Shown: piece after piece, positions 30,397 through 61,157 of the stretch
Layout of the letters: every line of letters begins with the position of its first letter
How positions within the stretch are numbered: position 1 is the stretch's first letter
Assembly (NCBI GenBank): GCA_049644265.1
Contig: JBARRO010000048.1
Coordinates: 2,886-66,885 of the forward strand
Length of the DNA: 64,000 nucleotides
Reading direction: 5' to 3'
Source of the DNA: Bacteroidota bacterium
GTDB lineage: Bacteria; Bacteroidota; Ignavibacteria; UBA10030
The notes under the pieces: generated by a model
What the model was told of the DNA's origin: nothing
What the model saw: only the letters and a program-made list of their open reading frames with translations
Databases searched by the model: none
Translations under genes and position numbers: made by a program

Positions 30397-32154
30397 TTGA
30401 ACCTACAGGTCATTGTTGCTACTGTCATTAATGGGTGCCTTGCACACGGCTCGTCAAAATGCTATATTGACACGGTTCGAGGAGCCACGTATCACTTTTC
30501 GGAAACCTTCCCCATGACCTGGATCGACTACAAGGACCTCAACATCACCGATGGAGCATTTAGTCGGTTATTCCTCGACTATATCGGCGATTACCAAAAG
30601 GTTCAGAAATTCTACGGCGGCAACTTCCGGGATGAGAGCGCCTGGCGCTCCGTGCTGGAAAAAGTCTCAAATCGTGCGATGGATCGCGGGCCGATCGTCC
30701 AGATCCTCTCCAACCAGAACCGCAATTTCCAGTGCGGCATCAAGACTTTGGCGAATATCGACCTCCTGTTGAACGACAACACCGTTGCCGTCGTCACGGG
30801 ACAACAGGTCGGCCTCTTTACGGGTCCCCTCTATACCATCTACAAAACCCTGACGGCGATCAAACTCGCGGAGCAGATCAATGCAAAGTACCAGGACTAT
30901 CACGCTGTGCCGGTGTTCTGGCTGGAGGGCGAGGATCACGACTACGAAGAAGTGACCAGGATTAATTTGATTAATGGATCGAACGATCTGGTTCATATCG
31001 AATATCCTCTTGAAGCGAAGAGAGAAAAGAAGAACGTCGGGGCGGTCGGGAAAATTGAATTTACGGACTCGATCAACGACCTTTTCGGAGCGATCGATCA
31101 GACGCTCATCCAGACGGAGTTCAAGCCGAAGGTTTTGGACCTCTTCAAAACAGCGTATCAGAAGGGAATGACCTTCAACAAAGCCTTTGTGCATTTGATG
31201 AATGTTCTGGTTGAAGACTCGGGATTAATCTTTTTCGACCCGAACGATCCCGATGCCAAGAAACTCGTAGCTCCCATTTTCCAACGGGAGATCACGGATA
31301 CGCCGAAGATCGGACAGCTCGTGATCGACCAAAGTGTAGAGCTCGAAAACATTTACCATGCACAGGTGAAGCCCCGCTCGATCAACCTTTTCCTTTTTCA
31401 TGGAGGCGGACGGTATCCCATCGAGCCCCACCCAGACGGCTACTCACTAAAAGGAACCCGCCAGCATATCACGAAGGAAGAGATGAGCGGATTTCTTAAG
31501 AATTCGCCCGAGCTGTTCAGTCCGAATGTTGTGCTCAGACCGATATGTCAGGACTGGCTCCTCCCCACCGCCGCCTACGTAGCAGGACCCTCGGAAGTCG
31601 CTTATTTTGCGCAATTCCGGCCGTTGTACGAAGAATTCAACATACCCGAGCCAATCATTTATCCGCGGGCAAGTGTGACAATACTTGAAGAAAAGGTGGA
31701 GAAAGTGTTGACCCGGTTTGCATTGCAGGTCACACAGTTTTTTGAGGATGTGGAGTTTCTGAAGCAGAAGATCGCGGTGCAGATTTCGGATTTCAAAGTC
31801 GATGAACTCTTCGCCAGCACCAACGGCGCCATCGAAGAATCTTTGAACAGTTTGCGAAGCGGGATGCAGACCATCGATCCAACCCTTATGGGAGCGCTCG
31901 ACAACACACTCGGAAAGATCAAATCCCAGATCGATGTGTTGAAAGAGAAGACCCTTGCTGCGCAGAAGCGTCAGCACGAAGTCTACCTGCGTCAAATCGA
32001 CAAGGCAGCAATTTTCCTGTTTCCGAACTCAAACTTCCAGGAGCGCGAGCTGAACGTGCTGTATTTCTTGAATAAGTATGGATTGGAATTTGTGCGATGG
32101 CTGAATAATGAGATAGAGATTGATAAGTTTAAGCATCAGGTGGTGAAATTGTAG
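30397..32154 (+). CDS. bshC: Bacillithiol biosynthesis cysteine-adding enzyme BshC
   Basis: VVTGQQVGLFTGPLYTIYKTLTAIKLAEQ...VPVFWLEGEDHDYEEV closely matches the B. subtilis BshC/YllA signature as recalled. True start probably MTWIDYKDL (~30514), preceded by a TTGACA-N17-TATCAC promoter-like element. Confidence 0.85.
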   Translation: MNLQVIVATVINGCLAHGSSKCYIDTVRGATYHFSETFPMTWIDYKDLNITDGAFSRLFLDYIGDYQKVQKFYGGNFRDESAWRSVLEKVSNRAMDRGPIVQILSNQNRNFQCGIKTLANIDLLLNDNTVAVVTGQQVGLFTGPLYTIYKTLTAIKLAEQINAKYQDYHAVPVFWLEGEDHDYEEVTRINLINGSNDLVHIEYPLEAKREKKNVGAVGKIEFTDSINDLFGAIDQTLIQTEFKPKVLDLFKTAYQKGMTFNKAFVHLMNVLVEDSGLIFFDPNDPDAKKLVAPIFQREITDTPKIGQLVIDQSVELENIYHAQVKPRSINLFLFHGGGRYPIEPHPDGYSLKGTRQHITKEEMSGFLKNSPELFSPNVVLRPICQDWLLPTAAYVAGPSEVAYFAQFRPLYEEFNIPEPIIYPRASVTILEEKVEKVLTRFALQVTQFFEDVEFLKQKIAVQISDFKVDELFASTNGAIEESLNSLRSGMQTIDPTLMGALDNTLGKIKSQIDVLKEKTLAAQKRQHEVYLRQIDKAAIFLFPNSNFQERELNVLYFLNKYGLEFVRWLNNEIEIDKFKHQVVKL

Positions 32155-32367
32155 GTTGTCGATTGTAGATTGTCGATTGTAGATTGTAGATCGAGATGGA
32201 ACAGTTGAAAGTTGTAAGTTGAAAGTTAAGAGTTCCGAGTTGTGAGTTTAGAGTTTCCAGTTTTGCATGTTTCACTATTCACGATTTACGATTCACTATC
32301 TACGGTTTACTTTTCACCTTTCACTTTTCGCTTCTCTAGCTCCTTCACCTGCCCTAAGATCTCGCAT
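32155..32367 (+). repeat. Array of 30 in-phase degenerate heptanucleotide repeats (intercistronic bshC to ICMT)
   Basis: From 32155, unbroken 7-nt phasing: gttgtcg attgtag x4 ... gttgaaa gttgtaa gttgaaa gttaaga gttccga gttgtga gtttaga gtttcca gttttgc ... actattc acgattt acgattc actatct acggttt acttttc acctttc acttttc ... ending 1 nt before the ATG at 32366. First half lacks C, second half is G-poor. Confidence 0.85.
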
Positions 32368-38996: not shown

Positions 38997-41594
38997 TTAT
39001 TCAAGCTTGCGTTTTGTCTCAACCGTATGATAGGCCTCGATAACGTCGCCCACCTTCAAGTCGTTGTAGTTTTCGAGCCCAAGGCCGCATTCGAAGCCCT
39101 GCTCCACTTCGCGGACATCGTCCTTGAACCGTTTGAGCGAAGCCAGCGTACCGTCGAACACGACAACGCCGTCTCGAACCAGTCGGACGCGATTGTTCCT
39201 CGTGATTTTGCCATCCCTGACGTAACAACCCGCGATGGTACCAACCTTTGAAATTTTGAATATGTCCCGCACGTCCACCGTCGCCAGCACCTCCTCGGAC
39301 ACGGTCGGCGCAAGCATACCTTCCAGGGCGTTCTTCACTTCGTTGATTGCGTCGTAGATGATGCTGTACAACCGGATGTCGATGTCCTCGAGCTGAGCAA
39401 GTTGCCGCGCCTTGAGGTTCGGTCGCACATGGAATCCAATGATGACTGCCTGCGACGCGACAGCAAGGAGAACGTCGGACTCTGAAATTCCTCCGACGCC
39501 CTTGTGAATAACCTGCACCTTCACTTCATTCGTCGACAGCTTCATGAGTGAATCGGAAAGTGCTTCGGCGGACCCGTCGACGTCTGCTTTGACGATGACC
39601 GGGAGGTCGCGTACCTGGCCTTCTTTGATCTGCTTTGAGATGTCGTCGAGCGTGACACGCCGGCTCTGGCGGAAATCCTGCTCACGTTTGAGTTGCTGCC
39701 GTCGGAAGGATATATCCCGCGCCTCGCGCTCGTCTTTGAGGACGACGAATGCATCGCCGGCCTGAGGGATTCCGTCAAACCCAATCACCTGCACCGGCTG
39801 GGACGGGTGGGCGACTTCAATACGCTGGCCCCGTTCGTCGAACATGGCTCGTACTCTTCCGCTCCAGACTCCCGTGACAAACGAATCGCCGATTCTCAGG
39901 GTTCCTTTCTGCACAAGAACTGTTGCCGTAATACCCTTGCCTTTATCCAGTTCTGCTTCGACCACCACGCCACGAGCTTCCCTGTTCGGATTGGCTTTCA
40001 GGTCCAACACTTCCGCTTCAAGGAGGATCTTCTCAAGCAACTGGTCCACATTCTTTCCGGTTTTTGCCGAGAGCGACACGACCTGAGATTTGCCGCCGTA
40101 CTCTTCGACGAGAAGTCCTTTTTCGGCCAGCTGCTGCTTAATGCGGTCCGGGTTTGCTTCGGGCTTGTCAATCTTGTTGATTGCCACGACAATTGGAACG
40201 CCGGCGGCCTGTGCGTGACTGATCGCCTCGACCGTTTGCGGCATGACACTGTCATCTGCAGCAACAACCAGGACGACGATGTCCGTCACCTGTGCGCCGC
40301 GGGCACGCATGGCAGTAAACGCCTCGTGGCCGGGAGTATCGAGAAACGTGATGTGCTTGCTGCCGTCCAGCGTGACCTCGTACGCGCCGATGTGCTGCGT
40401 GATGCCGCCGGATTCGCCGGCAACCACGTTGGCACTGCGAATATAGTCGAGGAGAGAGGTTTTCCCGTGGTCGACATGTCCCATGATGGTGACAACCGGG
40501 GGACGCGTGACCAGCGAGGTTTCGTCGTCGGGAATGTCCTGGAGGACATCAGCCGTGAACTCGTGTTCAAAATCGACCTGGAATCCGAATTCGTCGGCGA
40601 CGAGCGTAATCGTGTCTTTGTCAAGGCGCTGGTTGATGGAAACCATGACGCCGAGGCCCATGATCTTCTGGATGACTTCCGCCACAGAAACACGCATGAG
40701 GTTGGCGAGCTCGCCGACCGTGACAAACTCCGTGACTTTGACTCTCGTCCGATCGCGCTCGATCTGATCGAGGATCTTCTGCTGCTCCTCTTCGCGTTTC
40801 TCTTTCTTCCGCTTGCGAATTGCCGCGCGAGAGGTGACTGCTTCGTCACTGGATTCCGCCAGCGTTTCGCGGATCGCCTTTGCGACCTCCACCTCATTCA
40901 CCTCAGCCCGACGGACCTTTTTCCGCTTGCGCCCCTTCGCCTCTTCCTCATCCTCTGTCTTCGCGGGAGCAACTTTGACCTTTTTGGTGTCTTCCCGAAG
41001 CTTCTTTTTCTTCTTTTTCTTCTTCTTCTCTTCTTCCGATTCCGTTGCTGCGGCCGTCGGGGAGGTCAGCTCCATCTTCCCCTTGATCGTCAATCCCCTC
41101 TGCGCGCGCGCGACTGCGGCCTCCAACGGCGATTGCGGCCCACGACGTGCCGCCGGTTTTTCTTCCTTTTTGATTTCGACCGGTTTCGGCTCGGAAGCCG
41201 GAACCGCGGGCGCTTCCGTCGGCGGAGCCACAGGTAGCTGTGCCGCCTCAACGGGAGCAGCCTCTACCGTAGGCGCGGCAACCGGAATTTCTTCGACCGG
41301 TTCGGCCTCTTCGACCTTTACGGGTTCCTCTTCTTTGACCGCTTTCTTTTCGACCTTTTCGGGAGTTTCCTTCTTGCGGGTCGAACGGAATTCCTGAAGC
41401 TTCTTGTGGTGACGTTCCGCGACGTCCTTTTCCTTTTTGAAGTGACTGTTGATGGCGTGGACCATATCATCGGTCACCGCGCTCATGTGGTTCTTCACTT
41501 CAAACCCCTTTTTCTTCAGGAACTCGAGAATCGTTTCGCTCGAGAGGTTGAGTTCCTTCGCAAGGTTATAGATTTTGACTTTCTTTTCGGTCAT
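38997..41594 (-). CDS. infB: Translation initiation factor IF-2
   Basis: 865 aa. Charged low-complexity N-terminus with a poly-Lys tract, GTPase domain ([12 protein letters not shown] ... DTPGHEAF ... NKID) and C-terminal beta-barrels. The + ORF 39693..41237 is an antisense shadow. Confidence 0.95.
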
Positions 41595-43667: not shown

Positions 43668-44384
43668 TCAGAAGTTCATCACCACCGTTTGCTTCTTGTA
43701 GAAGTCGGCCACAAATTGGGCCGCTTCGACCGGATCGTCCGTGAGATGGAACAGATTGACGTCTTCCGGGGAAATCATTTTTGTTTTCAGAACCGTGGTC
43801 TTGATCCAGTCCACGAGCCCTTGCCAATATTCCACACCCATCAGGATGACGGGGAACGGTTTGGTTTTGTTTGTTTGGATCAACGTAATGGCTTCGAAGA
43901 ATTCGTCAAGAGTACCGAAACCGCCAGGGAGTACGACAAACCCGTGGGCATATTTCACGAACATCACCTTCCGGACAAAGAAGTGATTGAAGTAGAGGCT
44001 CCGGTCCTTATCGACAAACGCGTTCGAGCCCTGCTCGTGCGGGAGGACGATGTTTGCCCCCACGGACGCTCCTCCCTGCTTCTTCGCGCCCTTATTGCCC
44101 GCCTCCATGATTCCCGGCCCCCCACCCGTGAGAACATTGAATCCATGCTTCACGAGTTCCGTCGCAACCTGAACAGCCATTTCATAGTATTTTGACCCCG
44201 GCCGTACTCGCGCCGATCCAAAAATGGTTACCAGGCTTTTCTGCTTGGACATCATCGTGAACCCATCTACAAACTCCGCCATAATCCGGAAGACTCTCCA
44301 GATATCCTGTTGAGTGCTCAGCAGATCGTTAAGGAGCATGTCCTGTTTTTGATCATGCATCGAACGCTGGATCGGTTTTTTCAT
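43668..44384 (-). CDS. LOG-family cytokinin riboside 5'-monophosphate phosphoribohydrolase / Rossmann-fold nucleotide-binding protein
   Basis: GGGPGIMEA and [12 protein letters not shown] motifs of the TIGR00730/LOG family. Confidence 0.8.
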
Positions 44385-44971
44385 AGTAATCCCCTGGTTG
44401 GTATAATCATGAGAAAGTTTTTTAAGATCTTCTTTCCATGTTCGGTTGCTATGGATTCGGGATGAAACTGCACCCCGAATGTGGGAAACTCCCGATGTCG
44501 CACCGCCATAATCGTGCCGTCCTCAGTCCACGCAGTGACTTCAAGCTCTTTCGGCAACGACTCTTTTTCGACAATCAACGAATGGTACCGCGCGGCGGTA
44601 AAGGGAGAGGGAATGTCCCGAAAGAGGCCGGATTCACCATGGAAGATCGGCGATGTTTTTCCGTGATAGATCTTCGAGGCCCGCACAATTTTACCGCCGA
44701 ACGCCTCTCCGACCGATTGATGGCCAAGACATACTCCGAGAATCGGGACTCCCTTGTGGAGCCTCTTCACAACTTCCACAGAAACTCCTGCCTCGTTCGG
44801 AGTGCACGGCCCCGGCGAAATCACGATTCCATCCGGCTTCATCTCGATGATCTCATCGACTGTCATGGCGTCATTGCGGGCGACGGTCTGCTCCACTCCC
44901 AGCTCACCCAGATACTGGACGAGGTTGTACGTGAAGGAATCATAGTTGTCGATGACGAGGAGCATGGTCAA
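44381..44971 (-). CDS. trpG: Glutamine amidotransferase component of anthranilate / aminodeoxychorismate synthase
   Basis: Class I GATase triad (GVCLGHQ ... HPES). Real start probably the ATG at 44965 ([15 protein letters not shown]), not the listed TTG. Confidence 0.8.
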
Positions 44972-45099
44972 TTGGTCAATTCAACAAATGAACAATGAGC
45001 AATGTGAGAAGAACAGTAAGCAGTTGTCAGTAGACAGTACCAGGAAAAACACGAGGAGCGAGGAATCTGTAACTGACAACTGGAAACTCGAAACTTCTC
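44966..45099 (-). repeat. Array of ~17 in-phase degenerate heptanucleotide repeats (intercistronic trpE to trpG)
   Basis: Plus-strand phasing atgaaca atgagca atgtgag aagaaca gtaagca gttgtca gtagaca gtaccag ... atctgta actgaca actggaa actcgaa acttctc. The transcribed (minus) strand is G-depleted upstream of the trpG start. Confidence 0.8.
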
Positions 45100-46590
45100 T
45101 TAATGTATTAACCGCTCAAGGGCGTTCAGATTCGCTCCCAGTTTTTCCAGCGTTTCCTCGTACTCCCGTTCCGGCCTGGAGTCGAACACGATTCCGGCGC
45201 CTGCCTGGAAGTAGAGGGTATCGCCTTTTGCGACGATGGTGCGGATGGCGATGCAGGAGTCGAGGTTTCCTGAAAAATCGATGTAGCCTACGGCGCCGCC
45301 GTAGATTCCCCGTTTGACGGGCTCGAGTTCTGCGATGATTTGCATTGCCCGGATCTTCGGAGCTCCGCTCAAGGTTCCGGCCGGAAAGCAGGCGTACAGT
45401 GCATCGATCGCGCACATCTCTTTCCGAAGCTTTCCCTGGATATTGGAAACAATGTGCATGACGTGGGAGTAGCGCTCTATGGTCATAAACTGCGTTACCG
45501 AGACGCTGCCGAACTCGCTGATTCTTCCAAGGTCGTTCCGCCCCAGGTCCACGAGCATGAGGTGTTCAGCACGTTCCTTTTCGTCCGCCAGAAGTTCCTG
45601 TTCGAGTTTAAGGTCCTCCGTTGGACTTTCACCACGGCGTCTCGTTCCTGCGATCGGACGCGTCTCCACTGTCCCCTGCTCCACACGCACGAGCATCTCG
45701 GGCGAGGATCCGATGACCGAGAAGTCGTTTAAACCAAGGTAATACATGTAGGGCGATGGGTTGATCAGCCGAAGGGATCGGTACAGATCGAACGGAGTCA
45801 CACGCGCTTTTCGTTTCAGCCGCTGCGAAACGACGATCTGGAATGCATCCCCGGCAGCGATATACTCCTTCGACCGTTCGACACTCCTGCAATACTGCTG
45901 CTTTGACATCACATGCTCGAGCGCTCCGTCGGGTTTTGCGGCATGGAGCTCCAGCGAGACCTGCTTCGCGAGGATATTCTTGAGTCGCGCAATTTCTTTC
46001 GCGGCTTTGTCGTATTCGCGGCGCAGCGTTTCCACAGAAGGATTGGCGTCGGGAAGATATGCATTCGAAACCAGGAAGAGCTCGTGTCTCACGTTGTCAA
46101 AAATGACAACCGTGTCACAGAACATGAGGAGGCCGTCGGGAACATTCAGCTCATCCTTTCCTGTTGTGGGAATGTCTTCGATGAGCTGCACCGTCTCGTA
46201 TCCGAAGTATCCGATTGCTCCACCTGTGAGTCTCGGCAGGCCCTGCTCCTGGACTGTCTTGAAGTGTGCAAAGATCTTCCTGAGCGCATCCAGCGGATGA
46301 TCTTCCTTCTGTACAAGCCGTGGAAGGATTTCGACATCCTCGTGAAAGGATTCAAGAGAGAACTTTTTTCCCTCGATGCGAAAGATCATGAAGGGGTCGA
46401 AACCGAGGAAGGAATACCGTCCGAGCTTCTCTCCCCCTTCGACGCTTTCCAGAAGGAAGGAATAGGGGGATTCCGGCTGGAGCTTCAGGTAAACCGAAAC
46501 GGGAGTCTCGGTATCTGCGAGCAGTGTGTCGTACACAGGAATGACGTTGCCGAGCGCCGAGAGCCTCGTGAATTCTTCAAAGGATGTCAT
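45100..46590 (-). CDS. trpE: Anthranilate synthase component I (or aminodeoxychorismate synthase PabB)
   Basis: 496 aa chorismate-binding enzyme (LLESVEGGEKLGRYSF; C-terminal GAGIVFDS). No trpDCBA downstream, so PabB cannot be excluded. Confidence 0.75.
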   Translation of the reverse strand: MTSFEEFTRLSALGNVIPVYDTLLADTETPVSVYLKLQPESPYSFLLESVEGGEKLGRYSFLGFDPFMIFRIEGKKFSLESFHEDVEILPRLVQKEDHPLDALRKIFAHFKTVQEQGLPRLTGGAIGYFGYETVQLIEDIPTTGKDELNVPDGLLMFCDTVVIFDNVRHELFLVSNAYLPDANPSVETLRREYDKAAKEIARLKNILAKQVSLELHAAKPDGALEHVMSKQQYCRSVERSKEYIAAGDAFQIVVSQRLKRKARVTPFDLYRSLRLINPSPYMYYLGLNDFSVIGSSPEMLVRVEQGTVETRPIAGTRRRGESPTEDLKLEQELLADEKERAEHLMLVDLGRNDLGRISEFGSVSVTQFMTIERYSHVMHIVSNIQGKLRKEMCAIDALYACFPAGTLSGAPKIRAMQIIAELEPVKRGIYGGAVGYIDFSGNLDSCIAIRTIVAKGDTLYFQAGAGIVFDSRPEREYEETLEKLGANLNALERLIH

Positions 46591-56379: not shown

Positions 56380-56532
56380 TATACAAGAACTTGAAATTCC
56401 GATCCACCGTCTTCACAATTCTTAACAATTCCTCACACAACTTAACTTTGTTCTGCGAATCCTTTTGATGAAGTTGTTCGTCCGTAAGGGTAGTTCAGAT
56501 ATTCATTTTCATTTCTTTCAAGAAAGGATCCT

Positions 56533-57249
56533 ATGAAGTCAGGTGTATTGTCCATCGTTGCGGCTCTTGGATTCATCGGCTGTTCCTCCCTTGTCGCGCA
56601 GGAAAGCTCCCCTCCTGGCAAACGACAGACCTTCCAGACAGGGGGCGACAATGCCGTCGTCATCGGGGAGCTGGGAGTGATCATTTCCCTTGACGGCGAG
56701 AAGCTTACCGTCAAGGCGCTCTTGCCCAGTCCGAAGGACCCGAAGGAAGTCCCCGTCGATATCGCCATCGGCGATGAGATTGCCATGACAAACGGCAAGC
56801 GCGTCCGATCGATCGGGGAGTTGAAGGAATTGTACGAGTCCACGCCCGTCGGAAACGAATGCAAACTCGGCGTTCGCCGAGAAGGCCAGCCACACATCGT
56901 TACATTCCTGAAGAAGGAAGCCAAGGATTTTCCACAGAAAATGATCGTCCGCAGGCAGGGGAATGATGACCATGGGGATTTCTTCCCTGCACTCGGGATT
57001 GGCATTGCAGAACGGGGATCCGACGTCATCGTTTCCAATGTCTTGCCCAATGCACCGAAGGAGATCAGCAAGGGCGACGTTCTTAAGACATTGAACAACA
57101 AGCGAATCAGCAAGGCATCAGACTTCTCAAAGGAATTCGATGCGACGAACGTTGGCGGCAAACTCGTGCTCGGGCTCGAGAGAGACGGAAAGGCGTTTAC
57201 CATCTCTACCACCCGACCCAAACCAAAAATGCAGGTCATTACGAAATGA
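56533..57249 (+). CDS. Lipoprotein with PDZ-like domains
   Basis: Lipoprotein signal (LGFIGCSS) and two PDZ-like segments (GDEIAMTNGKRVRSIGEL ... GDVLKTLNNKRISKASDF). Confidence 0.5.
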   Translation: MKSGVLSIVAALGFIGCSSLVAQESSPPGKRQTFQTGGDNAVVIGELGVIISLDGEKLTVKALLPSPKDPKEVPVDIAIGDEIAMTNGKRVRSIGELKELYESTPVGNECKLGVRREGQPHIVTFLKKEAKDFPQKMIVRRQGNDDHGDFFPALGIGIAERGSDVIVSNVLPNAPKEISKGDVLKTLNNKRISKASDFSKEFDATNVGGKLVLGLERDGKAFTISTTRPKPKMQVITK

Positions 57250-58748
57250 CACTACGGACATTCACGACGACTGCATTTCTGGCGTTCCTGCTTGTTGTTG
57301 ACACGCCGCCAAGTTCCGCGCAATACAACAGCTTCAACCAGCGCGACGACAAGTATCGCCTGCTCGGGCTCAAGCGCGCAAAGGAATACTATGAGCTGGC
57401 GAAGAAAGAGTTCGACCGTCAAAAAAATCTCTTCGACAAGGGCCTTGTTTCGCAAGTTGAGATTGACCGTTCCAAGAACGCACTCGCCGACGCCGAAGTG
57501 AACTACCAACAATCCCTGCTCGCCGTGCTCTTCGAACAACAGTATGTATCCATTGACAATGCCGTGAAATACCAGGCATCCAACGGTTCCAAGCGTGTCA
57601 GACTTACGCTGAAAAATGCATCGGGAGGCGGCGAGGAATTTCAAAAACTCCTCGGCATCGAGGACAAACTGTTTCGTTCTCTTCAGCCGGACCTGATTCA
57701 GAATGTCTACGTTTCCCTCTACAACAGCGAGGGCGCAATCATCTCCCAGCCGTATGAGGCAAAGATCGAACAACTGAAGTCCGGCGAGCCACGAAAGATC
57801 GACTTTACGCTCCTGCAGGACCTGGACGCCGTGACGGTCAATATTATTTATGGGAATGGAACAAGCCGGACTCTGAAAATCCTCCTGCAGAAAGACAATA
57901 CCGTCAACAGGGTGCTGCTGCAGTCGCAACAGTTCTCCCAGGAGGCCGAGCTGGGCACGTCTGCAACGTTTGACCTCACGCTTGAGCTCTTCAGCGGCGT
58001 GGACAACACTTTTAGTCTCGAAGTGGTCAACCTCCCCCGCCAGATCAATCGATTCTTCAAGGACATTACAACGGGAGCCCGTCTTTCGCAGATCAAATTC
58101 ACGGAGAGTTCCAGTTCGAAGAAAGCGGGGTTGGAAGTTTCGTTGCCGGATCGGCCGACAGATCAGGTGGCCATGGACAAACCCATCGCGTTTTTTGCGC
58201 TGGTGGTCCCCACCGACCGGGGCGACGAGTTCCGTTCAATCCAGGAAAAGAGCTGGACCGAGGATGAGATCAAAAAATTGCATGTGGGATATGTCCGTCT
58301 CGAGCTCATGCCCCGTGGCCAGGGAAGGCTCCTTGTTCGGGCACCCCAACTTTACTACGCTATCAAGCCTGACGGCAGTGTCGAGATGACGGTGGACGCC
58401 GTGAACGAGGGAACGCGGAGGCTGGATAACGTCAGAATGGATGTGGACGTGCCCCTCAATTGGACCAAACGCATCAGTCCCGACGTGATTCCGGCACTCG
58501 ACATCAATCAGGAGAAACGCATCACGGTGACCGCTGTTCCTCCTCCGGGAATCGCCGTGGGCCGGTATGAGCTGCGTCTCCGCACAAGCGGCCTTTCGGA
58601 CAACAAGCCCGTCAACGCGGAAGACAAAACGGTGACTGTCGAGATCCAGGCAGAAGCAAGCGTGATTGGGACGATCCTTCTTGTGTTGACGATCCTTGGG
58701 CTTGTTTCGGGCCTGGTCGTGTTCGGGGTAAAGCTCTCAAAGCGGTAA
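57246..58748 (+). CDS. Secreted beta-rich protein with N-terminal coiled coil and C-terminal TM anchor (ABC-module accessory, hypothetical)
   Basis: Signal peptide. Adaptor-like coiled coil (LVSQVEIDRSKNALADAEVNYQQS). About 380 aa of beta-rich sequence with Ig-like/NEW3-like character. Hydrophobic C-terminal helix. Confidence 0.3.
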   Translation: MTLRTFTTTAFLAFLLVVDTPPSSAQYNSFNQRDDKYRLLGLKRAKEYYELAKKEFDRQKNLFDKGLVSQVEIDRSKNALADAEVNYQQSLLAVLFEQQYVSIDNAVKYQASNGSKRVRLTLKNASGGGEEFQKLLGIEDKLFRSLQPDLIQNVYVSLYNSEGAIISQPYEAKIEQLKSGEPRKIDFTLLQDLDAVTVNIIYGNGTSRTLKILLQKDNTVNRVLLQSQQFSQEAELGTSATFDLTLELFSGVDNTFSLEVVNLPRQINRFFKDITTGARLSQIKFTESSSSKKAGLEVSLPDRPTDQVAMDKPIAFFALVVPTDRGDEFRSIQEKSWTEDEIKKLHVGYVRLELMPRGQGRLLVRAPQLYYAIKPDGSVEMTVDAVNEGTRRLDNVRMDVDVPLNWTKRISPDVIPALDINQEKRITVTAVPPPGIAVGRYELRLRTSGLSDNKPVNAEDKTVTVEIQAEASVIGTILLVLTILGLVSGLVVFGVKLSKR

Positions 58749-58880
58749 TAACACTTGGTTCTTGGATACAGGACGTTGGGTGTTGGAAATTGGAAAGATG
58801 AACCATTCAAAGTCCAATGACCAATATTCAATAGTCAATATCCAATTCCCAATAATCAACGTGACCTAAAGGAGCCATTT
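58749..58880 (+). repeat. Array of 18 in-phase degenerate heptanucleotide repeats (intercistronic, upstream of the ABC ATPase)
   Basis: cacttgg ttcttgg atacagg acgttgg gtgttgg aaattgg aaagatg aaccatt caaagtc caatgac caatatt caatagt caatatc caattcc caataat caacgtg acctaaa ggagcca then ttt ATG. The distal half is NNNNTGG, the proximal half CAATNNN, G-poor. Confidence 0.85.
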
Positions 58881-59615
58881 ATGCAGCCAACTCCCATGTT
58901 TGAAGCCGTGAATCTCACCAAGAGGTATGAGGACGGCGTGCTTGCACTCGATCGTGTTTCGTTCCGTGTCGATCGCGGAGAGATCTACGCGATGCTTGGC
59001 GCGAACGGAGCCGGAAAGACGACCGCCATCAACATCTTCCTGAACCTGATCGAGCCGACCGAAGGAGAAGCACGTATCGATGGTGTCGCGACACATAAAG
59101 AGCCGCTGGTGGCAAAAAAGAATGTCGCATACGTTTCAGAAAACGTCATGCTGTATCCGAGCTTTACCGCGATTCAGAACCTCGATTATTTCGCAAGACT
59201 CGGTGGAAAAACCCAGTATACCCGGGAGGATTACCGAAAGGTCCTGCGGCGCGTCGGTTTGCAGGAGGAGGCGCACACGAAGAGACTCAAGGGATTCTCC
59301 AAGGGAATGAGGCAAAAATGCGGAATTGCCATAGCGATCCTTAAAGATGCTCCGGCCATTCTCCTCGATGAACCCACATCGGGGCTTGACCCTCAGGCGG
59401 CTTACGAATTCCAACGCCTCCTTGAGTCCCTCCGCGACGAAGGCAAATCGATTATCATGTCCACCCATGACATCTTTCGCGCCAAAGAAGTCGCGGATAC
59501 TGTCGGTATCATGAGCAAAGGAAGACTCGTCATGCAGAAATCTTCGGCCGAGCTGCAAGGAAAGGACCTTGAACAGGTATATATGAAACATATGGCGGGA
59601 CATGGAGAGGAGTAG
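58881..59615 (+). CDS. ABC transporter ATP-binding protein
   Basis: Walker A GANGAGKTT, signature FSKGMRQK, Walker B ILLDEPTSGLD, H-loop. Confidence 0.9.
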   Translation: MQPTPMFEAVNLTKRYEDGVLALDRVSFRVDRGEIYAMLGANGAGKTTAINIFLNLIEPTEGEARIDGVATHKEPLVAKKNVAYVSENVMLYPSFTAIQNLDYFARLGGKTQYTREDYRKVLRRVGLQEEAHTKRLKGFSKGMRQKCGIAIAILKDAPAILLDEPTSGLDPQAAYEFQRLLESLRDEGKSIIMSTHDIFRAKEVADTVGIMSKGRLVMQKSSAELQGKDLEQVYMKHMAGHGEE

Positions 59616-59744
59616 AGGAGTAATGGAGTAGATGAGTAGTGGAGTAGGTGCGTTTATGAGTCGATGAGTCTGTGAGTCTATAAGTCAATGAGTAACAGGG
59701 CAAACTGCTAACTGGAAACTGAAAACTGACAACTGGCAACTCCT
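59616..59744 (+). repeat. Array of 18 in-phase degenerate heptanucleotide repeats (intercistronic ATPase to permease)
   Basis: ggagtaa tggagta gatgagt agtggag taggtgc gtttatg agtcgat gagtctg tgagtct ataagtc aatgagt aacaggg caaactg ctaactg gaaactg aaaactg acaactg gcaactc then ct ATG. Shares the aactgacaactgg(a/c)aact motif with the trpE-trpG array. Confidence 0.85.
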
Positions 59745-61157
59745 ATGATCAAACTCATCATTGAAAAAGAGCTCCGGGAGATTATCGGATCGACGAAGTT
59801 TGCGGTGACGTTTGGGGTTTCGTCTATTCTCATTATTCTCTCGTTTTATGTCGGTGGCAGGAATTATCAGATCGGGACGGAACAGTACGAATCGTCGAAA
59901 CGCGAGGATTTCAGGAAGATGGAAGGAATCACTGACTGGAATGAAGTCCGCGACCACCGGGTCTTCCTTCCCCCTCAGCCTGTCGCGTCTCTCGTGATGG
60001 GGGTCTCAAACGACATCGGCCGGACCATGGAAATACACGGACGAGGCGAGCTGACTGCCGAAGACAGCAGGTATGGCGATGACCCGATTTATGCGGTCTT
60101 CCGGTTTCTGGATCTCGATTTCATCTTTCAAATTGTCCTTTCCCTCTTTGCCATTCTGTTTGCGTACGACGCCATAAATGGGGAAAAGGAGCGCGGGACG
60201 CTTCGACTCACATTTGCCAATCCGGTTCCGCGCGGCTCGTACATCCTTGGCAAAATGCTCGGATCGCTCTTCGGCCTTGCCCTTCCCCTTCTCATTCCCA
60301 TTCTGATCGGGTCGACGGTCCTGCTTCTCATGAAGATACCCCTTCAGACGCCGGATTGGGTGCGTCTGGCTCTCGTCGTGGCCTGTGGATTTCTGTACTT
60401 TGGCGCGTTTTTGGCGCTCTCCCTGTTCATTTCTTCCCTAACGGAGAGATCCTCACATTCCTTTCTCCTCCTGCTCATTATCTGGATTCTCTCAGTCATG
60501 GTTGTCCCCAGAATCGCTGTGTTACTCGCAGGAAGGGCCATCGACGTCCCGAGTGTCGATGAGCTCGGTTCGAAGAAATCCCGATACGCCGCTTCGCTCT
60601 GGCAGGAGGATCGGAAGAAAATGGCGGATTTCAAGTCGACTCCCGGCGTCCCTGCCAATGAAGTGCTCAAGGGTTTCCAAAAGTTCATGTCGCAGATGGG
60701 CGATGAAAGGGAAAAGAAGATTCAGGAATTCGGCAGACAACTGAACGAGAACAGGACGAACAAGCAACGTCTTCAGGAGGACCTGGCGTTTGGACTCTCC
60801 ATGGTCTCCCCTTCCGCAGTCTTTTCCCTGGCATCAACCACGATTTCGGGTACCGGCCTGCGGCTCGCGAACAACTTTCAGCACGAGGCCGAAACGTACC
60901 AAACGTCGTACGGAGAGTTCATGAAGGAGAAAACCGGAATGAATCCCGGCGGCGGCATGGTGTTCCGCATTTCCACGGACAACGATACAAAGAAAGACCC
61001 TGTGAACCTGAATGAGCTTCCTGTATTCGAGTTCCGCAGGGAACCCCTTCGGGCTGTCCTGGGGTCCATCGCGTTGGACTTTGGAATCCTGGCTCTCTTC
61101 AATATTCTGTTCTTCGCCGGGGCGTTTATCTCGTTCCTTCGCTACGATGTCCGTTGA
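59745..61157 (+). CDS. ABC-2 family transporter permease (paralog 1)
   Basis: 470 aa. N-terminal TM, large extracytoplasmic/charged insert, ABC-2 core (DDPIYAVFRFLDLDF ... C-terminal FLRYDVR). Confidence 0.65.
   Translation: MIKLIIEKELREIIGSTKFAVTFGVSSILIILSFYVGGRNYQIGTEQYESSKREDFRKMEGITDWNEVRDHRVFLPPQPVASLVMGVSNDIGRTMEIHGRGELTAEDSRYGDDPIYAVFRFLDLDFIFQIVLSLFAILFAYDAINGEKERGTLRLTFANPVPRGSYILGKMLGSLFGLALPLLIPILIGSTVLLLMKIPLQTPDWVRLALVVACGFLYFGAFLALSLFISSLTERSSHSFLLLLIIWILSVMVVPRIAVLLAGRAIDVPSVDELGSKKSRYAASLWQEDRKKMADFKSTPGVPANEVLKGFQKFMSQMGDEREKKIQEFGRQLNENRTNKQRLQEDLAFGLSMVSPSAVFSLASTTISGTGLRLANNFQHEAETYQTSYGEFMKEKTGMNPGGGMVFRISTDNDTKKDPVNLNELPVFEFRREPLRAVLGSIALDFGILALFNILFFAGAFISFLRYDVR

Follow-up and report, generated by a model that had tools for sequence, protein, structure and literature searches.

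The window analyzed here (i.e., the whole 64,000-nt stretch of contig JBARRO010000048.1 from a Bacteroidota bacterium) carries on its forward strand a spacer of 132 nt (positions 58749 to 58880), most of which is made up of degenerate 7-nt units (hereafter, array C). The gene preceding the spacer (57246 to 58748, + strand, from the list of open reading frames [ORFs]) encodes a 500-aa protein with an NPCBM_assoc/NEW3 domain (Pfam PF10633; E = 6e-13) and ends in a TAA stop codon at 58746 to 58748. The gene following it (58881 to 59615, + strand) encodes a 244-aa ATP-binding protein of an ATP-binding cassette (ABC) transporter (Pfam PF00005; E = 8e-29), which is 100% identical to the NCBI protein [quoted passage not shown] (MAG, metagenome-assembled genome). 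Two ABC-2 permeases are encoded 3' of this ATPase gene. We retrieved 149 related loci (L001 to L149) with the upstream protein and the ATPase, and the order NEW3-domain gene, ATPase, permease is kept in most of them. Many of their records are labeled as Ignavibacteria, Ignavibacteriaceae, or "Bacteroidota" MAGs; others are labeled as KSB1, Zixibacteria, or other groups, and the rest are unlabeled metagenome contigs.

The period-7 order of the spacer is real and far beyond chance. The self-identity of positions 58749 to 58880 at a lag of 7 nt was 0.512, while dinucleotide-preserving shuffles gave 0.261 ± 0.039 (z = 6.5; 0 of 2,000 shuffles as high). Harmonics were present at lags of 14, 21, and 28 nt (z = 4.1 to 4.5), the remaining lags being unremarkable, and Tandem Repeats Finder (TRF) reported periods of 7, 14, and 21 at 58805 to 58854. 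A first-pass annotation, made from the sequence of the window, had described a heptad-repeat spacer between the upstream stop codon and the ABC ATPase start, and both this description and the 7-nt periodicity that it implied are borne out by the statistical test.

The units of array C have the forms TTGGNNN and NNNCCAAT and are arranged in two blocks. The left block (58756 to 58797, + strand) contains six TGGNNNN heptads with a TTGG core (TGGTTCT, TGGATAC, AGGACGT, TGGGTGT, TGGAAAT, and TGGAAAG; i.e., one with AGG). It is followed in register by two degenerate central heptads, ATGAACC and ATTCAAA (58798 to 58811, + strand), and then by the right block (58812 to 58860, + strand), which contains seven NNNCAAT heptads (GTCCAAT, GACCAAT, ATTCAAT, AGTCAAT, ATCCAAT, TCCCAAT, and AATCAAC; six exact CAAT and one CAAC) with a (C/T)CAA core complementary to TTGG. 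The ends of the spacer are not repeats; these are the first heptad, TAACACT, and the last positions before the ATG, GTGACCT, AAAGGAG, and CCATTT. All units share a single 7-nt register, as the annotation had stated, but only about 15 of its eighteen in-phase heptads are true units, since TAACACT and the last heptads do not belong to the repeat. Its six NNNNTGG-type heptads correspond to the TGGNNNN units of the left block, the AGG unit included, while its eight CAATNNN-type heptads are seven NNNCAAT units to which the degenerate ATTCAAA had been added. The longest perfect lag-7 run in the array is 7 nt (i.e., at most two identical adjacent units), compared with 20 nt in the "fresh" arrays of two related loci (L028 and L112).

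The 20 nt between the last unit and the start codon (58861 to 58880, + strand) constitute the translation initiation region. They include the Shine-Dalgarno (SD) sequence AGGAG at 58870 to 58874, 6 nt before the ATG at 58881. A GGAG, GAGG, or AGGA core was present at positions -20 to -4 of 90 of the 138 orthologous ATPase starts (65%; background, 13%), and the segment CAACG.GAC.TA.AGGAG is kept in the relative L150, which does not carry the array. AGGAG is therefore a conserved native ribosome-binding site; its presence at the 3' end of the spacer had been recognized correctly in the annotation, but the repeat does not supply it.

Comparison with relatives indicates that the array is an insertion specific to this lineage. 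The spacer of L150, the closest relative with DNA (ATPase 93% identical), is 47 nt long versus 132 nt here. In a pairwise alignment (A1), the stop codon with approximately 12 nt and the last approximately 40 nt, including the SD sequence, are conserved and flank a segment of 85 nt that is absent from L150 (58760 to 58844, + strand) and that coincides with the core hairpin described below. On the P0003 contig (ATPase 95% identical), for which the comparison used gene coordinates only and no DNA sequence, 87 nt separate the upstream stop from the shared Met (147 nt here), and the next spacer is 272 nt versus 129 nt here. A more distant relative, L151 (ATPase 84% identical), has compact spacers of 32 and 22 nt, each with an SD sequence. 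In 115 non-redundant orthologues, the median spacer lengths are 55 nt before the ATPase gene (junction C) and 31 nt after it (junction D), and most of the orthologous spacers are short and without repeats. Because L150 is without the segment, P0003 has the shorter gap, and L151 has compact spacers, the ancestral state is best read as a tight operon, and the array appears to be a young, fast-evolving, lineage-specific insertion and not a conserved regulatory element. The differences in spacer length among the relatives with 93 to 95% identical ATPases are differences between lineages. These were the best relatives found; the best hit of a scan of JGI metagenomes was 81% identical, and look-ups of exact proteins returned no further contig of the same species.

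In the spacer (58749 to 58880), we found neither a sigma-70-type promoter nor a Bacteroidetes-type -7 motif (TAnnTTTG), and no intrinsic terminator (i.e., a GC-rich stem with a U-tract); AUUCCCAAUAAUCAAC comes after the hairpin. Given these results and the conserved gene order, we consider the spacer to be intercistronic, and since it lies inside a conserved operon, the array is probably transcribed. Candidate promoter elements for the PDZ/NEW3/ATPase/permease cluster lie 5' of its first gene, in the divergent region adjoining a histidine-kinase gene (56391 to 56450); these are a sigma-70-like candidate site at 56391 to 56419 and a Bacteroidetes-type candidate, TAACTTTG, at 56443 to 56450. OmpR-type response regulators bind direct repeats spaced approximately 10 to 11 bp apart, not 7 bp, and on this general knowledge a binding site for the neighboring OmpR-type response regulator was set aside. 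An Rfam scan of positions 58500 to 60000 on both strands gave no matches at E ≤ 1.

The left and right blocks are reverse complements of each other (TTGG/CCAA), a dyad symmetry that the first-pass annotation had overlooked. RNA fold prediction yielded an imperfect core hairpin of approximately 31 bp built from both blocks (58763 to 58844, + strand), with the two central heptads in its apical part. The minimum free energy (MFE) of the spacer RNA was -37.4 kcal/mol (z = -3.24; 0 of 200 shuffles equally stable), and the predicted core helix was identical in four larger sequence contexts. If transcribed, the spacer probably folds into an imperfect hairpin of approximately 80 nt. The antisense strand is predicted to fold nearly as well (-36.3 kcal/mol; z = -2.46). 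Because the two strands fold about equally well, there is no sign that the structure acts as RNA rather than as DNA, and a strand-specific RNA signal carried by G-U pairs was dropped on the same comparison. An alternative register is offered by inverted repeat I1, in which 58773 to 58794 pairs with 58841 to 58862 (22 nt; 82% complementary). In the MFE structure of the isolated spacer, UGGUUCU (58756 to 58762) pairs with GGAGCCA (58871 to 58877). The predicted partner of the SD sequence shifts with the context, from 58757 to 58762, to 58733 to 58737, and then to 58891 to 58894; as the pairing was not robust, sequestration of the SD sequence by the hairpin base, with translational coupling by the terminating ribosome, was also dropped.

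Array C is not the only one of its kind in the window. A 70-nt sliding scan of the 64 kb detected only four period-7/8 regions, all of them intergenic (32113 to 32362, 44965 to 45098, 58746 to 58871, and 59570 to 59776; arrays A to D, respectively), whereas only 1 of 2,777 coding 130-nt chunks from the window and the related loci reached the array threshold. The units differ among the four arrays. Array D (59600 to 59744, + strand; detected by both TRF and the sliding scan) is a sister array in the spacer between the ATPase gene and the first ABC-2 permease gene. Its GGAGTANN period-8 units begin inside the 3' end of the ATPase gene and include the TAG stop codon of that gene; GAGTCNNT units follow, and the array ends with the period-7 units TAACTGG, AAACTGA, AAACTGA, CAACTGG, and CAACTCC, which abut the permease ATG at 59745 without an SD sequence. 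No excess RNA structure was predicted for array D (z = +1.08).

The longest array in the window is array A (32148 to 32340), composed of ATTGTAG/ATTGTCG (six units), AGTTNNN (nine units), and TTTCACN (nine units). It occupies the gap that separates a 585-aa gene, whose end is at 32154, from the probable start of a membrane-protein gene (ATG at 32366), and an ORF that runs through its repeats from an ATG at 32267 is probably spurious. Its RNA fold likewise has no excess structure (z = 0.08). Array B (44966 to 45099) lies between trpE-like (45100 to 46590) and trpG-like (44381 to 44965) genes of the - strand, identities that were judged from the translated sequences without a domain search. Read on the + strand, its units are TGGTCAAT (two), CAGTNNN (four), TAACTGA, CAACTGG, and AAACTCG. 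It abuts the start codon without an SD sequence, and its sense RNA is predicted to form a hairpin (z = -3.17).

The hairpin of array C invites comparison with repetitive extragenic palindromic (REP) sequences and bacterial interspersed mosaic elements (BIMEs), intercistronic palindromes that occur in transporter operons, e.g., between malE and malF of Escherichia coli. Both place a stable hairpin between an upstream gene for an exported or accessory protein and downstream genes for transporter subunits. REPs, however, represent a single conserved palindrome scattered in hundreds of copies, while array C is internally periodic and lacks a further copy anywhere in the 64 kb or the 152 related loci. 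The 20-nt arm sequence had no other match in the window at up to 3 mismatches, and no CCAAT-N3-type array was found in the 152 loci. On the lack of a second copy, a dispersed REP/BIME element or an element resembling a miniature inverted-repeat transposable element was ruled out.

Arrays with periods of 7, 14, or 21 formed the largest class of TRF arrays (86 of 230) in the 1.58 Mb of the window and related loci, in which pure period-7/8 arrays are almost all intergenic. The orthologous spacers of other lineages use other units (i.e., TGGATNNN/NNNATCCA, TGTTCAC, AGAGCAA, and CCGTTGT/ACAACGG). Two loci, a MAG labeled KSB1 (L031; 11483 to 11605) and a metagenome contig (L083; 4751 to 4970), have four to five TGGATNNN units, a loop, and 8 to 20 NNNATCCA units at the orthologous spacer; they share the two-block mirror architecture of array C but have a period of 8, and the units of L083 are near-perfect. 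The RNA of the L031 array has a z score of -5.75.

The spacer after the ATPase gene is similarly occupied in several relatives. Related TGGAGTNN or GGAGTNN arrays are present in L150 (942 to 1015), L022 (8094 to 8222), and L007 (9120 to 9267). The L150 block is homologous to the TGGAGTNN block of array D; it comprises five TGGAGTNN units, a loop, and ACTCCAAC ACTCCCTT, i.e., a dyad-symmetric octad hairpin. Among the relatives, the C-terminal residues of the ATPase vary with the post-ATPase array (GHGEE, GHGGE, and GHGE). At the spacer orthologous to that of array C, differing structured repeats are present in L012 (8425 to 8597), L013 (2471 to 2675), and L018 (11441 to 11580); these include inverted repeats of CACAAAG/CTTTGTG as well as a palindrome, GTCATCCTGAGC...GCTCAGGGTGAC, that may be a REP-like dispersed element. 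Inverted-orientation cassettes were found at this orthologous junction in two lineages. The cassette of L097 (4038 to 5000) has two genes, with a weak PIN match (below the Pfam cutoff) and a DUF2281 match, and may be toxin-antitoxin-like, while that of L077 (4097 to 4982) has two small ORFs without a Pfam match and lies beside a dyad-symmetric GAAGATC/GATCTTC heptad array. The insertion of cassettes in two lineages suggests that the junction may simply be permissive.

Arrays of this kind have been described before. Direct repeats of heptamers have been reported immediately upstream of the start codon in Beggiatoaceae, Cyanobacteria, and five Bacteroidetes; other heptamers often occur among them, and the corresponding spacers of close relatives lack the arrays (MacGregor 2015; PMC4679880). 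According to the survey of Mrazek et al. (2007), as cited in that study, heptanucleotides are the most abundant unit of long simple sequence repeats (LSSRs) in most of the surveyed genomes. Array C resembles the short tandemly repeated repetitive (STRR) sequences of heterocystous cyanobacteria, LSSRs, and TAACTGA arrays in its 7-nt head-to-tail units, its intergenic position, and the presence of several mixed-unit arrays per genome; such arrays often extend to the start codon, and close relatives lack them at the corresponding site. With tandem units of 7 nt, varied and non-coding, and with a sporadic distribution, array C is a further member of this known, functionally unexplained class of heptanucleotide repeats.

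Within this class, the TAACTGA family known from Beggiatoaceae, Cyanobacteria, and Bacteroidetes, whose repeats were proposed in Beggiatoaceae to be a protein-binding platform (PMC4679880), is represented in the window only by the sister arrays B and D, which hold TAACTGA, TAACTGG, and AAACTGA units; it is the last block of array D that matches the family. Membership of array C itself was ruled out because its units are of other types. Array C further differs from the arrays described before in its much greater degeneracy, in ending 20 nt short of the ATG so that a normal SD sequence remains, and in its host, an uncultured Ignavibacteria-like Bacteroidota. We found no report of such arrays in Ignavibacteria in the literature, and the repeat class is here extended to an uncultured lineage resembling that group. 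At face value, array C is ordinary, being one more intergenic heptanucleotide array. It is also a clean example in which both arms of a hairpin are heptad arrays on a single 7-nt lattice, and the 85-nt insertion or deletion relative to L150 provides a before/after comparison.

The reading that we favor, as somewhat more probable than the alternatives combined, is that array C is a heptanucleotide array of the STRR/LSSR type that was generated by slippage, turns over rapidly, is transcribed within the operon, and is neutral to mildly modulatory. Slippage during replication, following a 7-nt lattice, would have built the array where it now stands. The single register that runs through both blocks and the 14-nt center suggests growth of the entire region on a common heptad lattice, and the seeding of array D in the 3' end of the ATPase gene (with the TAG stop in a GGAGTAG unit), together with the varying C termini, points to local slippage and not to a foreign insertion. 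The cores of the two blocks, (TTGG N3)n and (N3 CCAA)n, may owe their complementarity to an ancestral CAATTGG-type unit that was partly palindromic, and CAATTGG-like strings are present in array B and in the arrays of L021 and L061; alternatively, template switching may have copied one arm into the other. Lying between the NEW3-domain gene's stop codon and a native ribosome-binding site that is intact, the array would probably be included in the operon transcript. The double-stranded RNA placed in this way between the cistrons could slow decay or be cut by RNase III, so that, at most, mRNA processing or stability would be modulated.

A precedent for the turnover of such arms is the P6b stem of the Nostoc tRNA-Leu(UAA) group I intron, which is built from heptanucleotide motifs (TDNGATT or NNTGAGT) and shows 7-nt insertions and deletions in either or both of its sides (PMC4476775). 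In both cases, degenerate 7-nt units make up the hairpin arms, either or both arms lengthen or shorten in steps of whole units, and turnover between close strains is rapid. The unit families are similar as well (GATGAGT and TGTGAGT in array D; TGGATT in L031 and L083). The P6b stem differs in being inside a self-splicing intron and in another phylum, and homology is not implied. A preprint on Nostoc reports that heptamer repeats affect the expression of recF and recO, with no mechanism given (10.1101/2022.06.06.494920).

In a second reading, a selected intercistronic RNA hairpin would be cleaved by RNase III or would block 3' exonucleases, so that transcript abundance for the upstream exported protein would no longer be tied to that of the ATPase and permease cistrons. 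The models for such an element are the hmw hairpin of the 5' untranslated region (UTR) and the REP hairpins. The hmw1A gene of Haemophilus influenzae has an upstream (ATCTTTC)n tract that is transcribed and folds into a long hairpin in the 5' UTR, which RNase III processes (PMC12721329). The heptamer repeats of hmw1A/hmw2A thus resemble array C in being placed upstream of a start codon as well as in forming a hairpin arm, and they offer a tested mechanism by which a hairpin affects expression. They differ in that the tract is long, has identical units, and varies within populations, while the units here are degenerate; in that the right arm is a non-repeat G-rich region, while both arms here are heptad arrays; and in that the gene encodes a surface adhesin of a host-adapted pathogen. 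The predicted stability of the hairpin of approximately 31 bp in every context, and the fact that the segment missing in L150 is the hairpin itself, also fit selection, as do the enrichment of arrays at both junctions flanking the ATPase gene and the recurrence there of dyad-symmetric heptad or octad arrays in other lineages (see below). However, the spacers at junctions C and D are not predicted to be more structured than other co-directional spacers (median z, -0.16 and -0.69, respectively, versus -0.86), and spacers with an array do not exceed array-free spacers in predicted structure (P = 0.29). On these two comparisons, a conserved hairpin at the orthologous junction was rejected. Two of the four arrays of the window (A and D) have no excess structure, close relatives are without the hairpin, and both strands fold about equally well. 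A selected hairpin is an unlikely account of array C, second to the favored reading.

The distribution of the arrays provides the points that weigh against the favored reading. Arrays with a period of 7 or 8 were found at 16 of 230 C/D junctions, whereas the remaining gene junctions in these loci had them in 14 of 844 cases (odds ratio [OR] = 4.4; P = 1e-4); when the window and one related pair were excluded, the counts were 13 of 227 versus 13 of 787 (OR = 3.6; P = 0.0016); these statistics are based on crude ORF maps and correct only partly for shared ancestry. Within the window, 2 of the 4 arrays lie at these two junctions out of 59 (P approximately 0.0035). Moreover, dyad-symmetric arrays recur at the C/D junctions of L031, L083, L022, L110, L112, and L150, which could reflect function. 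The enrichment is not predicted by a purely neutral model and hints at selection or at a local hotspot; it could stem from a hotspot, from selection, or from sampling. The array units at these junctions are unrelated between lineages. If the two spacers around the ATPase gene are a hotspot, they are a place where the question of array function becomes testable.

Taken to its full extent, the same distribution would make the heptad- and octad-lattice hairpins a class of intercistronic RNA element that recurs under selection on either side of the ATPase gene in the conserved ABC-2 operon, a reading that we consider improbable. If it were true, such hairpins would persist at or repeatedly colonize these two junctions in Ignavibacteria-like, KSB1-labeled, and Zixibacteria-labeled lineages and would set the stoichiometry of the transporter subunits via the processing or stability of double-stranded RNA, and their growth could depend on transcription and on the hairpin, as shown for hmw of H. 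influenzae.

Still somewhat less probable is that the array would be a periodic platform for a single-strand-binding protein (S1, Csp-like, or CsrA-like) that tunes translation of the downstream gene. By analogy with the model proposed for TAACTGA repeats (PMC4679880), this would suit arrays that end at or near start codons, and arrays B and D both abut an ATG without an SD sequence and hold TAACTGA-like units. Array C, in contrast, keeps a normal SD sequence downstream of its last unit and is predicted to be largely base-paired. There is no common motif to be bound, since units differ between arrays of one genome and between lineages, and the model is untested even in its source organism.

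The first-pass annotation had also raised the possibility of phase-variable expression of the transporter (i.e., a contingency locus in which gain or loss of heptads switches or grades expression). Spacer length does differ greatly among relatives with 93 to 95% identical ATPases, and in H. influenzae, expression can be graded by heptamer simple sequence repeats that lie upstream of a gene (PMC12721329). Nevertheless, array C contains no tract of identical units, and because its units are too degenerate, frequent slippage is unlikely. The spacer contains no promoter element whose geometry could change, the SD sequence lies outside the array, and neither the reading frame nor the SD-ATG distance depends on the number of units. 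The sister arrays flank housekeeping genes such as the trpE-like/trpG-like pair. Phase variation is thus unsupported and highly improbable, and membership among simple-sequence contingency loci was ruled out on the lack of an identical-unit tract and of any dependence on promoter, frame, or ribosome-binding-site geometry.

That the pattern is due to chance or to an assembly artefact has a negligible probability: the general risk of misassembly at repeats in MAGs is all that speaks for it, whereas the periodicity exceeds chance by a wide margin, the degenerate units are not collapsible identical repeats, both flanks align cleanly with an independent assembly, and similar arrays are present in many independent assemblies.

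One further repeat in the window is of another type. A (CTT)12 trinucleotide run (41001 to 41036) lies inside an 865-aa ORF on the - strand (38997 to 41594), in which it would encode a run of lysines.

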